From assembly GCA_024680695.1 (NCBI GenBank), contig JAILBW010000033.1, positions 1,068 through 65,067 of the forward strand: a DNA stretch of 64,000 nucleotides. The letters run 5' to 3'. Below the pieces are notes generated by a model. That model saw nothing but the letters and a program-made list of their open reading frames with translations. It was not told the origin of the DNA and made no database searches. This DNA comes from Bacteroidaceae bacterium. GTDB taxonomy: Bacteria > Bacteroidota > Bacteroidia > Bacteroidales > Bacteroidaceae. Of this stretch, positions 12,199 to 63,758 are shown piece by piece (position 1 is the stretch's first letter; each line of letters opens with the position of its first letter). The position numbers and the translations under genes were made by a program.

Positions 12199-12275
12199 GG
12201 CGGGATAGCTCAGCTGGTTAGAGCGTCGGATTCATAATCCGAAGGTCAAGGGTTCAAGTCCCTTTCCCGCTACCA
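12199..12275 (+). tRNA. tRNA with CAT anticodon (elongator Met, or Ile2 if lysidine-modified); CCA encoded
   Basis: Manual cloverleaf: acceptor GGCGGGA/TCCCGCT, D-arm GCTC-AGCTGGTTA-GAGC, anticodon arm TCGGA-TTCATAA-TCCGA, T-arm AAGGG-TTCAAGT-CCCTT. Confidence 0.9.
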
Positions 12276-49164: not shown

Positions 49165-49271
49165 AAAGTCTGCGAGTATATTGAATTGCTGTCCAACAAT
49201 TCGAAACACTTCATTTTTCAGTCAAAGCATAATTTCGATTCCAAAGGCTTTGTCCATTGAAAGAAAAACAA

Positions 49272-49279
49272 TACCTTTG
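49272..49279 (+). promoter_or_regulatory. -7 promoter element TACCTTTG
   Basis: Upstream of the GH5 gene. Implies a 5' UTR of 110-160 nt. Confidence 0.5.
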
Positions 49280-49440
49280 CGGTCAGAAATGATTGAGTCG
49301 CTCCGACCCTGATTTACGAACCCACTTGAAACAATCCTGAAGGAGCCTTCTATCCTAAGCCGAACGGAAGAAATAAGACCTGCTGAACCATGCATCGAAG
49401 AAAGATATTGAACAACCGGGCAAATGTCTGTTTCAAAAGG

Positions 49441-60382: not shown

Positions 60383-60740
60383 ATGTTTTTATAGTCCTTC
60401 TTGTATACATCTTTTCGTTTTTTTCTACTCCTCATTCTTTCAACCCTTCTCCAACATTTCGCACCCCCACTTCGCTTCCTACATTTCAATTCCCTTTCTT
60501 TCCACGCACTTATTTACAAAAGTCATTTTCCACAACTTTCTTTCTGCAGCTTTCTTTTCGTAACTGCCCCCCTTTCTGGAAAACCTTTCTTGATTCTCTC
60601 ATCATTTATGCTACGTTTTCGCACATCGCACAATCGTATTCATGACATTCACACGGCACTCTTGGCCCGCAAAGTTACTCAAATATCTAATTCTATACAA
60701 ATTTTAACTCCTCACATTTGCTTATTCCGAATAATAGTCT

Positions 60741-60748
60741 TAATTTTG
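60741..60748 (+). promoter_or_regulatory. -7 promoter element TAATTTTG for the tRNA
   Basis: 29 nt upstream of the tRNA 5' end. Confidence 0.55.
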
Positions 60749-60776
60749 CAGTCGAATTCATGTAAGTGAATTCAAC

Positions 60777-60850
60777 GGACTTGTAGCTCAGTTGGTTAGA
60801 GCAACAGACTCATAATCTGGAGGTCCCAGGTTCAAGCCCTGGCTGGTCCA
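60777..60850 (+). tRNA. tRNA with CAT anticodon (elongator Met or Ile2); CCA not encoded
   Basis: Manual cloverleaf: acceptor GGACTTG/CTGGTCC (one T-T mismatch, one G-T), D-arm GCTC-AGTTGGTTA-GAGC, anticodon loop CTCATAA, T-arm CCAGG-TTCAAGC-CCTGG. Confidence 0.8.
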
Positions 60851-60862
60851 CATTGAAAATCA

Positions 60863-60897
60863 AGCACTTACAAAGATTTGTAGGTGCTTTTTCTTTT
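60863..60897 (+). terminator. Rho-independent terminator after the tRNA
   Basis: 11-bp stem AGCACTTACAA/TTGTAGGTGCT followed by TTTTCTTTTG. Confidence 0.75.
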
Positions 60898-60898
60898 G

Positions 60899-61007
60899 TT
60901 TGCGAACAATTTGCGAACAAAACCACAATCTATGAATACCAATATCAACTTCCTGCAAATATAGTCTCACTCATTTTGTTCGCAAAAGCATCAATTTTTG
61001 TTCGCAA
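60899..61007. repeat. Four copies of TTGCGAACAA: two direct (60899-60920, period 11) and two inverted (60976-60986, 60998-61007, period 22)
   Basis: Direct reading. Lies immediately 3' of the tRNA terminator. Confidence 0.85.
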
Positions 61008-61192
61008 GGCACTTTTCGACGTATTACTCAGTAATATCAGTAACCTTTTTCAAAAAGAGCATGATTTGTACCAAACCTGCATACATCCTGCTGATATTGT
61101 CCCCTAAAACTAATAAGGTTGTTGAAAAACGGAAAAATTTTATACACGTTGTGTATAAGCAAATTTCCCCTGAAAATTAGTTCAAATTTGTT

Positions 61193-61223
61193 TTTGCCAG
61201 TTTGAAGAAAAAGTGTACCTTTG
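61193..61223 (+). promoter_or_regulatory. Complete Bacteroidota promoter TTTG-N19-TACCTTTG
   Basis: -33 TTTG at 61193-61196 and -7 TACCTTTG at 61216-61223. Confidence 0.6.
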
Positions 61224-61229
61224 CAGCCA

Positions 61230-61769
61230 AATTTATAGGTTGGCCTATAGTTCCCGTAGGGGCAGGGCAAGCTAACTGTAGCCTTGTTGGTTGGGAACGT
61301 CCATTTGGTATGAGCCGTATGGCGAATACGTTAGAGGCGAAATCCTGAGAGGTGTGAAAGCAGAAGTTAAGCGATGCGAGTAATGCCGTTAGCGTAGGGA
61401 TGGAACCCAGGAATGAAAAAACAGACTTACCACCTGTCTTCTCCCATTCCCGTTTACTGGATTTGGCAAGAATACTTTCTTGCGTTAGTTTTCAAGTCTT
61501 CGGAAGATGCTCCGGAGCAAATTTAAAAGTAAACACAGGCACCATGCCTGGATGGAATGTTAAACCAGTTAATGCGTTTTCACGCAGAGAGGAGATGTTA
61601 TGCACACCATTAAAACAGTAAACCAGTAAGAGTGCACTCGAAGTGACTTTTACGCATGTATAGTGACTCGAGTACAGTCGCTCTATTATCCTTTCCTTAT
61701 CTTTTCCACAGAAAAGGTGAGGCTTAATGGCGTATTGCCATAAGTGTAACCAATCAAAAAGAATTTATC
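61230..61769 (+). ncRNA. Candidate large structured RNA or highly structured 5' leader (class unknown)
   Basis: About 540 nt between the promoter and the first ATG with no credible ORF. At least 10 local hairpins, e.g. 61234-61249, 61466-61483, 61536-61550, 61573-61586, 61635-61672, 61695-61722, 61723-61744. Confidence 0.4.
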
Positions 61770-62273
61770 ATGAGTTTGGATTTATATATCAAGACGAACG
61801 CACCCGTTATAAAGCGTGGTACAGGTGTCTATGTCAGAGAAGATGGCAAGAATAGAGAATTAAAGACAATGGCAGAAGTGCAAGAGTATTTTCCGGATGC
61901 AGACCTGTCACAAATAAAAGTCTTTGAATATGAAACTAATGATGTGTGGCATGAGAACATCACACATAATATGAACAAGATGGCGGGTCAAGTTCCCATA
62001 GGAGTACATACATTGTACGAGTATCTCTGGCGTCCTGATGAAATCGGTATTACTCATATTACCCGAGAATATGCTGTTGCCGTTTTCAACGGACTGATGT
62101 ACATGAAGGAGCATAAGAAAGACCTTCTACCTTTCGAGCCGCCCATCAATCCTGAGACGGGAACACGTTGGGGTTCCTATGATCTGTTGGTGGAATTCTG
62201 TGCTTCTCTTGTCGATGCCATCATGTCCATCGATTATACTAAAGAACAATACGAGCTTTATGCAAGTAGATAA
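61770..62273 (+). CDS. Hypothetical protein (167 aa), no family recognised
   Basis: ATG-initiated ORF, protein-like composition, first gene of a tightly spaced co-directional set. Confidence 0.55.
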   Translation: MSLDLYIKTNAPVIKRGTGVYVREDGKNRELKTMAEVQEYFPDADLSQIKVFEYETNDVWHENITHNMNKMAGQVPIGVHTLYEYLWRPDEIGITHITREYAVAVFNGLMYMKEHKKDLLPFEPPINPETGTRWGSYDLLVEFCASLVDAIMSIDYTKEQYELYASR

Positions 62274-62300
62274 TGATTGAAGAGTAAAAAAAACAGAGCT

Positions 62301-63173
62301 ATGAAGATTGAAATAAAGAAAAAAGAAAAATACTATCAAGATGCGTTAATATGGATGGGCTACCGATACGCCATCGGACTGTCTGAGTCCAACAGCTATG
62401 GGAAACGAGCCATTGAGCAATTAAAGGTTTTTCGGGACATTGAGTTTGACACTCCCGAGTTTCACGCTTTGGCCACAGAGTTCGCCCAATTCCTAAAACG
62501 CAAGAAGATAAAAGATGTGATGGACTTAAGGCAGAAGATGTTGGAGTCTGACCTCATGTGGTATTCAGCCCACTATGGTATAGGACGGCATAGTTATGCA
62601 GCCAGCCACTGCCATGATATCATTCAATACGGCACAGATGTTCTCTCGCCTGAGAGACAGGAGTTCCTTGCCTTTGACATCAGAAGAGAATTGTCCACGT
62701 ATCTTAGTTGGAGCACTCCATTTCGGATGCCAATAGATGGAGAGCGCACCATAGATCCGATAGATGCATTCCTTAGTTTCCTCCGAGATAACGATATCAA
62801 GACATCTGAAGATTTGGCAGAGTACGAGGAGATAATGGTCGTCGCGGAGGATAAGGGAAAATACTCTTATTATGTGAGGAAAAGACCAGAGGATGCTGAG
62901 AAGCCATACATTCTCCCATTCGGATTTGAATATAGTGATTACTTTGGATGGGCCGACCTTGCATCATTCTTTGATCCGAAGTTCCACAAACGGGTGTTGC
63001 TTCGCAATGAAGGTAAGGAGGAAGTGGTAGAGTGCTTTGACTCATGGCAGTATCAGACTCATTCTGCCGACGGATTCCCGTTCATGAAGGTAAAACGGCC
63101 AGTAGATGGATATAGGCATTGGCCTTACGGGGTTTACATACCCGAAGAGTATATAGTAAAAGAATTAGATTAA
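62301..63173 (+). CDS. Hypothetical protein (290 aa), no family recognised
   Basis: The ORF is open from TTG 62277; the first ATG is at 62301. Protein-like composition. Confidence 0.55.
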   Translation: MKIEIKKKEKYYQDALIWMGYRYAIGLSESNSYGKRAIEQLKVFRDIEFDTPEFHALATEFAQFLKRKKIKDVMDLRQKMLESDLMWYSAHYGIGRHSYAASHCHDIIQYGTDVLSPERQEFLAFDIRRELSTYLSWSTPFRMPIDGERTIDPIDAFLSFLRDNDIKTSEDLAEYEEIMVVAEDKGKYSYYVRKRPEDAEKPYILPFGFEYSDYFGWADLASFFDPKFHKRVLLRNEGKEEVVECFDSWQYQTHSADGFPFMKVKRPVDGYRHWPYGVYIPEEYIVKELD

Positions 63174-63179
63174 GAAAAA

Positions 63180-63758
63180 ATGAATTATAAGTTTAATGAA
63201 GAACATACGTTCTTTACATCAGATACGCACTTCAACCATGCGAATATCATAAGTTTTTGTAATCGCCCGTTCAAGGATGTAACGCAGATGAACGAGACTA
63301 TGATAGAAAAATGGAATAGTGTGATAGGAGTTGATGACACGGTTTTTCACTTGGGCGACTTCTGTCTAGGTGGTGCTGCTGAATGGATGAAGCTACTGGA
63401 TCGTTTGAATGGTAAAATATATCTCATTATGGGCAACCATGACCTGAAGAACATCCGCCAGGGATTCATTCATAGGTTTGAGCATGTAGCGATGCAGTTG
63501 CACATCGAAGTCGGCAAGCAGAGAATCTATCTCTGCCATTATCCCTTTCTGTGTTTCGATGGCAGCTATAAAGATGTATGGCAGCTATTTGGACATGTCC
63601 ACACAAGGAAAAATAACACAGGAATAGATGCAGGACGACTCCAGTATCTGTACCCGACGCAGTATGATGTTGGAGTGGACAATAACAACTTCACCCCTGT
63701 ATCCTTTATGCAGGTGAAGGGGATTATAAAGAAGCAAGTAAAACAGAATAAAGAATAG
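63180..63758 (+). CDS. Small calcineurin-like metallophosphoesterase
   Basis: SDTHFNH, LGDF, GNHD and GHVH motifs in the canonical order; 192 aa. Confidence 0.75.
   Translation: MNYKFNEEHTFFTSDTHFNHANIISFCNRPFKDVTQMNETMIEKWNSVIGVDDTVFHLGDFCLGGAAEWMKLLDRLNGKIYLIMGNHDLKNIRQGFIHRFEHVAMQLHIEVGKQRIYLCHYPFLCFDGSYKDVWQLFGHVHTRKNNTGIDAGRLQYLYPTQYDVGVDNNNFTPVSFMQVKGIIKKQVKQNKE

Follow-up and report, generated by a model that had tools for sequence, protein, structure and literature searches.

In a 64,000-nt stretch of DNA from a Bacteroidaceae bacterium (hereafter the window; NCBI GenBank assembly GCA_024680695.1, contig JAILBW010000033.1, positions counted from the first letter of the stretch), about 540 nt separate a promoter at 61193-61223 from the ATG of a gene at 61770. 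We conclude with good confidence that this segment encodes a functional structured RNA of ~520 nt on the plus strand. We also suggest, on a balance that tilts modestly in its favor, that the RNA is a cis-acting regulatory 5' leader at the head of the main operon of a mobilisable element; a switch between two folds is the weaker, proposed mechanism for this leader. An earlier annotation made from the letters of the window (the sequence-only reading) had flagged the segment as a candidate large structured RNA. What holds of that description is that the RNA is promoter-driven, non-coding, conserved and structured on the plus strand. The idea of an ornate fold over the whole 520 nt does not hold to the same degree, as five lineages are too shallow a sample to support it.

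Conservation and base pairing of the RNA

Homologs were obtained by collecting relatives of the downstream 167-amino-acid (167-aa) protein from metagenomes and comparing the regions upstream of their genes. On contigs that encode the closest relatives (83-95% identity), the non-coding stretch is present at 74-95% nucleotide identity, and exact-pattern scans with two pieces of its most conserved block added four genome and 15 metagenome loci. After removal of duplicates, 21-22 copies of the RNA remained in about five lineages (alignments A3 and A4): lineage A with the window and loci L108 and L081, lineage B with eight loci, lineage C with six, lineage D with three, and lineage E with L111. The homolog search that the sequence-only reading had recommended thus yielded 21 copies in five lineages. 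Named carriers are the isolate Phocaeicola oris 14-104 (contig NZ_JAJLQX010000010.1), a Bacteroidaceae MAG (metagenome-assembled genome) from yak reticulum, and an uncultured Prevotellaceae MAG, which has two copies. Sources of the copies include rumen metagenomes, and the element is found in rumen and oral Bacteroidales. A single match from an 18-mer scan (L094) was rejected as a chance match.

The distribution of the RNA appears narrow, as judged by pattern scans that would miss divergent relatives. No match was found among GenBank phages or PLSDB plasmids by BLASTN at 'distant' sensitivity. IMG/VR has 80 loci, on viral contigs of 77-154 kb, with genes for 39-42% relatives of the 167-aa protein, and none of these loci carries the RNA. 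It is also absent upstream of the genes for relatives of 53-67% identity (L088-93 and L114-122), where the upstream regions are short.

How strongly is the segment conserved? Identity to the window at third codon positions of the adjacent gene is 0.64 in lineage B, 0.64 in lineage C and 0.51 in lineage D. The corresponding values for the core of the RNA (61405-61490) are 0.99, 0.97 and 0.94, while identity ranges over 0.67-0.96 in the 5' domain, 0.57-0.88 in the middle region and 0.72-0.91 in the 3' domain. Judged against the third codon positions of the next gene, the segment is conserved well above neutral. Conservation peaks in a block of ~85 nt (61404-61488), whose columns are invariant or at least 90% conserved in 21 sequences, in stems and loops alike.

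This conservation does not reflect coding constraint, because no open reading frame (ORF) in the segment behaves as a gene. Among the homologs no ORF of at least 24 aa is conserved in frame, in agreement with the earlier claim that the segment holds no credible ORF. A 73-aa ORF (61400-61621) loses its ATG and is shifted by a 1-nt indel in other lineages. The ORF that starts at 61413 (MKKQTYHLSSPIPVYW..., 24-37 aa) has an invariant start and 17 conserved first codons, but among these there is one non-synonymous change and none that is synonymous. Beyond them the frame is shifted by a 1-nt indel, and the C-terminus differs between lineages. Pfam and PHROG gave no match for the ORFs at 61400-61621 and 61037-61270, in a scan that did not cover the ORFs at 61413 and 61600.

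Both single-sequence and comparative folding support a structured RNA. The segment 61225-61769 folds on the plus strand at -161.5 kcal/mol (z -3.15; 0 of 100 shuffles as good), against a z of -1.92 on the minus strand. On alignment A4, RNAalifold predicts 97 pairs, with 99.4% of cells paired; 11 pairs show compensatory changes on both sides, compared with 6.4 +/- 1.4 in column shuffles (0 of 500 as many) and 0-3 when partners are slid by 1-3 columns. A second consensus, computed by RNAalifold from six lineage representatives, has 133 pairs, 14 of them compensatory versus 9.4 +/- 1.7 after shuffling (5 of 500). Compensatory pairs therefore exceed their controls, as is required of a structured RNA. 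In about 13 pairs G-U predominates, and these would read C-A on the opposite strand. This feature, the RNAalifold energies (-113 on the plus and -95 on the minus strand) and the two z-scores identify the plus strand as the functional one.

Solid covariation is limited to four helices in the 5' domain and a few hairpins. Two of these helices are nested within 61250-61298: 61251-56/61292-97 has three compensatory pairs and 61262-67/61282-87 has one. The changes arose independently in lineages C and D as U-A/C-G, C-G/U-A and A-U/G-C exchanges, with 98-100% of cells paired. They are followed by a two-part hairpin, GUAU-GA-GCC/GGC-GA-AUAC (61308-61329), in which 61308-11 and 61314-16 pair with 61321-23 and 61326-29 (three compensatory pairs, 97.6% paired). 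The fourth helix, 61345-55 with 61383-92, changes from G-C to A-U between lineages A and B, with a G-U intermediate in L081, and from U-A to C-G in lineage C. In the middle region, hairpins 61536-39/61547-50 and 61574-77/61582-85 occur in all homologs, with one compensatory pair each. A further hairpin, CUUCGGA/UCCGGAG (61498-61517), comes from the RNAalifold structure of the lineage representatives and is 97% paired, with one one-sided change. The 3' domain (61626-61750) comprises helices 61629-35/61677-84 and 61636-53/61658-73 and hairpins 61695-61706/61711-61722 (12 bp) and 61727-31/61737-41. It is 96-99% paired with one compensatory pair, and is conserved yet replaceable.

Many of the helices listed by the sequence-only reading can be recognized in the homologs. 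The hairpin GGAATG...CATTCC with its inner AGAC...GTCT and the hairpin GCAAGAA/TTCTTGC are present and invariant in all of them. CAGGC/GCCTG, TGCGT/ACGCA, the 12-bp helix 61695-61722 and the bulged helix 61723-61744 (as 61727-31/61737-41) are likewise kept throughout. So is a proposed long-range pairing of TTACTGG with CCAGTAA (61454-61460/61622-61628), which has no mismatch in any homolog and two one-sided changes. Three other proposals fared less well: the hairpin at 61234-61249 is absent from lineage C, ACTCGA/TCGAGT (61635-61672) is not kept in lineages C and D, and CGTAT/ATACG (61315-61329) was placed in the wrong register, the covarying structure being the two-part hairpin described above.

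A proposed 5' leader and its alternative folds

The promoter has the hallmarks of a Bacteroidota sigma-A promoter (-33 TTTG, -7 TAnnTTTG, ~19-nt spacing): TTTG at 61193-61196, a 19-nt spacer, and the -7 box TACCTTTG at 61216-61223, exactly as the sequence-only reading had described it. Every lineage retains the -7 box; of the four lineages with copies extending as far as the promoter, three retain the -33 box. The motif TTTG-N17-21-TAnnTTTG has only three plus-strand sites in the window, one of them before the tRNA-Met gene. Transcription would be expected to start near 61229-61232. The first half of the RNA segment was also rightly noted as richer in G+C (0.48 at 61200-61399) than the spacer between the tRNA-Met gene and the promoter (0.34-0.36 at 60900-61199). 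Elsewhere in the window, nhmmer reports a weak resemblance (E 0.011) between positions 49237-49287 and the promoter region of the RNA module, at the site of another of the three plus-strand promoter motifs (49249).

Approximately 35 nt upstream of the -33 box lies a perfect 8-3-8 palindrome, TTATACAC-GTT-GTGTATAA (61140-61158), which is operator-like and a putative protein-binding site. Of the 122 loci retrieved, 21 with the RNA each have a single copy of TATACACNNNGTGTATA, in a constant position, and the remaining 101 have none; in the window it occurs once, against 0.03 expected. Palindrome, promoter and RNA travel together in every case. Operator, promoter and RNA are thus one module, which recombines as a unit and always heads an operon.

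What follows the RNA? Conservation of the unit extends to about 61750, the point from which loci with another first gene differ, and in every locus that reaches the 3' end it lies directly upstream of a co-oriented gene. Three different first genes occur at this position. The start codon of the 167-aa gene stands 25-45 nt after the RNA in lineages A, C, D and part of B, and six lineage B loci have an unrelated 105-aa gene first, its start codon within the same 25-45 nt. L111 (1-1021) is a recombinant that keeps the 5' domain, the core and the middle region up to ~61606, followed by ~150 nt of unrelated sequence and then a metallophosphoesterase gene. No further plus-strand -7 box was found between 61224 and 62400, and a consensus scan found no convincing terminator at the 3' end of the RNA. 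A 5' leader is therefore the simplest reading, because the RNA stops just before the co-oriented first gene with neither an intervening promoter nor a convincing terminator.

The near-invariant core (61404-61488) begins with the hairpin GGAAUG(61410-15)/CAUUCC(61445-50), which encloses AGAC/GUCU (61423-26/61436-39) around the loop UUACCACCU. It continues with GUUUACUGG (61452-60) and a second hairpin, 61466-72/61477-83. Since both hairpins are invariant, neither offers a test by covariation. The second hairpin was returned by the consensus scan as terminator-like (61466-61493; 7 bp, three of them G-C, then GUUAGUUUUC) and may be an attenuator or the 3' end of a short isoform. Short motifs recur in 61330-61630, namely AGUAA(A/G) four times (61379, 61528, 61617 and 61624) and GUUA(G/A) about six times. 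They might serve as repeats bound by a protein, or as sequences that pair alternatively with GUUUACUGG.

The 3' half of the core (61436-61460) reads GUCUUCUC-CC-CAUUCC-CG-UUUACUGG. Downstream stand three invariant blocks within 61528-61596, AGUAAAC (61528-34), GGAAUG (61554-59) and GAGGAGAU (61589-96), which are colinearly antiparallel-complementary to 61452-58, 61445-50 and 61436-43 of the core. Two covarying hairpins (61535-39/61547-51 and 61573-77/61582-86) separate the blocks. Pairing between core and blocks excludes the local hairpin GGAAUG(61410-15)/CAUUCC(61445-50), whereas hairpin 61466-83 still forms inside the closed helices and does not compete with them. Forced into the long-range fold, the window RNA lies 3.1 kcal/mol above its minimum free energy, and RNAalifold picks this fold for the six lineage representatives. 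Cofolding core and downstream region gains -16.9 kcal/mol, compared with -8.8 +/- 3.3 in dinucleotide shuffles, 2 of 300 of which were as good. Two near-isoenergetic folds, and with them a switch or attenuator mechanism, are thus plausible on folding grounds. They would also explain the extreme conservation of the core, because nucleotides with two alternative partners are expected to be frozen. The third block carries an AGGAG box that precedes, by a 5-nt spacer, an invariant AUG (61600) and a nine-codon upstream ORF (uORF; MHTIKTVNQ*, box and uORF spanning 61590-61629). The uORF keeps a length of 8-9 codons in all five lineages, including L111 (MHQITLPLS*), whose sequence diverges fully from codon 3 on.

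We propose the following mechanism. The region ~61230-61750 would be transcribed from the promoter, below the operator-like palindrome, and would give the main operon of the element a long structured 5' leader, made up of the covarying multi-helix 5' domain (61250-61392), the core, the middle region and the replaceable 3' domain. This RNA would act in cis on operon expression through a choice between two exclusive folds. In fold A the core would fold on itself, with GGAAUG at 61410 paired to CAUUCC at 61445. In fold B, 61436-61460 would instead pair with the three blocks 70-160 nt downstream, thereby burying the AGGAG box before the uORF and enclosing the terminator-like hairpin. The choice of fold would set read-through into the genes, by attenuation or by Rho-type polarity, and would complement repressor control of the promoter with a safety catch that acts after initiation.

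One natural variant bears on these elements. L097 (3112-3525) has a 123-nt deletion corresponding to 61471-61593, flanked by AGA microhomology as judged by eye, and is the only deletion variant seen. Lost with it are the terminator-like hairpin, the two middle hairpins and the greater part of the complementary blocks. This copy may be de-repressed or defective; another copy of the RNA in that MAG lies beside a tRNA-Asn gene (L098).

Several observations weigh against the proposed leader and, in particular, against its switch. We infer the start and the end of the transcript as well as its co-transcription with the genes. The more distant homologs of the 167-aa gene manage without the RNA, which is thus not required for that gene as such. 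Independent substitution events are few among five lineages, and compensatory pairs were counted on the very alignments that had yielded the consensus structures. All 21 long-range pairs, and indeed every pair that distinguishes the two folds, are invariant, so covariation supports neither fold. The complementarity statistic is modest (about p 0.01) and was chosen after inspection of the sequence. The U-tract after hairpin 61466-83 is weak and is lost in lineage D (GUUAGUGUAAAG). Shine-Dalgarno (SD) sequences precede only 6 of 62 long ORFs of this host, and the two strands of the window contain AGGAG-N4-8-ATG 13 times by chance. Translation of the uORF is uncertain and this part of the proposal is weakened, because the host hardly uses SD sequences. 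Finally, a search for trans targets found no recurrent complement of at least 10 nt to the core in the operons of five loci, which counts against the mechanism as well.

Competing explanations and related RNAs

Could the RNA act in trans instead? It might be a free-standing non-coding RNA, either as the whole ~520 nt or as a ~260-nt species ending at hairpin 61466-83, with its target elsewhere and genes that merely happen to follow. Such an RNA would fit the size and many helices, the invariant core whose loops are invariant as for a binding surface, and the terminator-like hairpin inside the segment. It would also fit the minimal unit common to L097 and L111, which is the 5' domain plus the core. 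However, the RNA has not been seen anywhere but at the head of a co-oriented operon, it has no convincing 3' terminator, the genes have no separate promoter, and the operons sampled contain no recurrent complementary sites of at least 10 nt. We therefore regard a trans-acting RNA as unlikely. A related possibility, to which we likewise give little weight, is an RNA-only switch or immunity device. The core, possibly released as a ~260-nt isoform ending at 61483, would pair with the three boxes of the read-through transcript and shut (or open) the early operon. The covarying 5' domain would then be a putative signal sensor, and the function would resemble that of P4 CI or P1 C4 with unrelated sequence.

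We consider all of the remaining explanations improbable. A DNA-level element (an oriT, a single-strand initiation or promoter site, a replication origin, or part of the attachment region) would account for the position within ~350-500 nt of an attachment (att) end or an integrase gene and for the invariant inverted repeat 61466-83, and single-stranded DNA would give compensatory changes too. However, a conserved double-strand promoter and operator point into the segment, which consists of many short helices with conserved G-U pairs rather than one long hairpin. It contains no iterons, the arm-type repeats lie outside it, and the relaxase gene, the usual place for an oriT, is ~5.7 kb off in L104. 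Even less probable is that the segment serves to encode small proteins, from the 24-37-aa ORF at 61413, the nine-codon ORF at 61600, or both. Their start codons are invariant, the first 17 codons of the former are conserved and the length of the latter is kept, but the pattern of codon changes and the shifting C-terminus described above speak against coding. Moreover, parts outside the ORFs are equally conserved and contain compensatory pairs. Least credible of all is a functionless spacer that looks conserved through recent divergence or recombinational exchange. In its favor are the narrowness of the family, the 96% identity of lineages A and B in the 5' domain, and the mosaic nature of the elements, with their different first genes. 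Against it, third-position identity in the flanking coding DNA is 51-64% where the core has 94-99%, and the changes in helices are compensatory.

Does the RNA belong to a described family? We ran Rfam 15 cmscan on the whole window at gathering scores, on 60700-62000 at E<=10 and on four divergent homologous loci at E<=1, and obtained only tRNA and chance matches. Among the models named by or close to the sequence-only reading, GOLLD, ROOL, HEARO, OLE and raiA gave no match. The suggestion that the RNA may be new therefore stands for Rfam 15, in both the window and its divergent homologs. The core sequences occur in none of the papers and supplements in the collection searched, and general literature searches gave no account of such an RNA. 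Among known kinds of RNA, it most resembles a regulatory leader of a mobile-element operon. The family is new to catalogues, and what is unusual about it is its length, the extra covarying 5' domain and the frozen core. Large structured bacterial RNAs of unassigned function are rare, and to our knowledge almost none have been described for mobile elements of Bacteroidales.

The analogy with GOLLD and ROOL offered by the sequence-only reading is not sustained: no model matches, the carrier differs from a prophage, and every locus has the RNA in the position of a leader. The present RNA is like these two and HEARO, OLE and raiA in exceeding 500 nt, in its many helices, in its rumen and Bacteroidales-type sources, and in lying on mobile DNA beside a tRNA gene. 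GOLLD and ROOL are associated with tRNA (PMC7567579, citing Harris & Breaker 2018). Unlike in those cases, the tRNA gene here is an integration site and not a member of a phage tRNA cluster. The RNA is also far narrower in distribution than the large RNA classes, has covariation for only part of its fold, and matches none of their covariance models.

Leader-embedded immunity RNAs of phages and satellites (P1/P7 C4, N15 CB, P4; PMC7567579) are closer in arrangement. In P4 CI with seqA/seqC and in Gifsy-1 IsrK, leader pairing within or between transcripts sets premature termination or small-ORF translation (PMC4825925). Like P4 CI, C4, CB and IsrK, the present RNA would be the promoter-proximal untranslated leader of a mobile-element early operon, and its core with downstream blocks, internal terminator-like hairpin and AGGAG-uORF resemble the arrangement of the P4 CI/C4 type. 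However, it has no match to the C4 family of Rfam at E<=10, is much longer, has an additional covarying 5' domain, and belongs to a host of another phylum that barely uses SD sequences. Its boxes are invariant across lineages, whereas immunity specificities diverge. We know of no P4 CI/C4-like system of this kind in this phylum.

Riboswitch and attenuator leaders offer another comparison. In these, a structured sensor domain precedes alternative terminator and antiterminator pairings; the present RNA would be comparable in placing a covarying 5' domain ahead of predicted, mutually exclusive pairings and a terminator-like hairpin, at the head of an operon. However, no Rfam riboswitch family matches, the products of the operon suggest no ligand or factor, and ~280 nt more of conserved structure after the hairpin would be unusual for an expression platform. 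The HK022 put and EAR RNAs, which cause processive antitermination from the leaders of long operons, are 70-120 nt long, with defined two-hairpin or pseudoknot folds. Similar to them, the present RNA is proposed as a cis-acting structured RNA at the start of a mobile-element operon of ~9 kb.

Why does this RNA matter? Bacteroidales are the dominant order of gut and rumen. The RNA combines a clear promoter and operator with a very conserved core whose alternative pairings can be tested, and natural variants are at hand in the 123-nt deletion, the swapped 3' domain and the three different first genes. A cultured carrier exists (P. oris 14-104), making RNA-level gating of the early operon of the element directly testable. 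If RNA-based attenuation or immunity is true, a mechanism of enterobacterial phages and satellites would extend to another phylum. If the RNA merely stabilizes its message as a leader, it would be a modest addition to RNA catalogues.

The carrier element and its genes

The RNA lies at one end of an integrated element. In the window, a tRNA-Met gene (60777-60851, plus strand; ARAGORN and Rfam) is the integration site and left boundary of the element. A tRNA-Met gene likewise stands ~330 nt upstream of the RNA promoter in L082, L084, L095, L097 and L108, and tRNA-Asn takes this place in L098. In lineage B, a tyrosine integrase gene is found divergently upstream of the RNA instead of the tRNA. 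In L104, the genes after that for the integrase encode DUF6043, a DUF5906/VapE-like protein and a MobA/VirD2 relaxase, with chromosomal genes beyond them; integrase, DUF6043 and VapE-like genes separate the relaxase gene from the RNA. At the other end, in L106, the operon behind the RNA stops after ~9 kb, near chromosomal genes and an HTH_3 protein, which is a candidate for binding the palindrome at 61140-61158. Given the integrase, the VapE-like protein, the MobA relaxase and the chromosomal genes at the ends, we identify the carrier as an integrative mobilisable element of ~17-18 kb.

The prophage context assumed by the sequence-only reading is thus replaced by an element with integrase, DUF5906/VapE-like protein and MobA/VirD2 relaxase. 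Its tRNA-adjacent context is correct as to adjacency but not as to meaning, since the tRNA gene is the attachment site and the proximity is an integration-site effect seen with tRNA-Met or tRNA-Asn. We also considered RNA-guided recombination and rejected it: L097 (tRNA-Met) and L098 (tRNA-Asn) differ by a few scattered bases over 239 shared nt, with no guide-like variable segment. A second tRNA-Met (CAT) gene is present at 12199-12275, 48 kb from the one at the attachment site.

Between the tRNA-Met gene and the promoter are four copies of TTGCGAACAA (60894-61007), two direct (60899-60920) and two inverted (60974-61007), with repeat families D1, D2 and I1-I6. From their position, they are probably arm-type binding sites for the recombinase (integrase) or an excisionase that mark the end of the element. 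A full Bacteroidota promoter motif (TTTG...TATATTTG) is also present on the minus strand at 60956-60986 and faces outwards, in the direction of the tRNA/att junction. Once the element had been excised as a circle, transcription from this motif would cross attP and might enter the integrase gene.

The first genes of the operon in the window (61770-63758, plus strand) encode the 167-aa protein, a 298-aa protein and a 192-aa metallophosphoesterase. Only the third (63180-63758) belongs to a known family, matching Metallophos and phrog_547. The 167-aa protein (61770-62273) has no sequence match in Pfam, NCBIfam, PHROG or PDB. Its AlphaFold model is confident (predicted local distance difference test, pLDDT, 93.6; predicted template-modeling score, pTM, 0.85) but has no structural analogue in PDB (best E 0.39, TM 0.26), and its matches in BFVD are uncharacterised phage proteins only. 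Apart from metallophosphoesterases and HTH_17, the downstream genes have no family in NCBIfam, Pfam or PHROGs. Behind the RNA in L081, L101 and L105, the operons encode two to three separate calcineurin-like metallophosphoesterases, several family-less proteins and then an HTH_17 protein.

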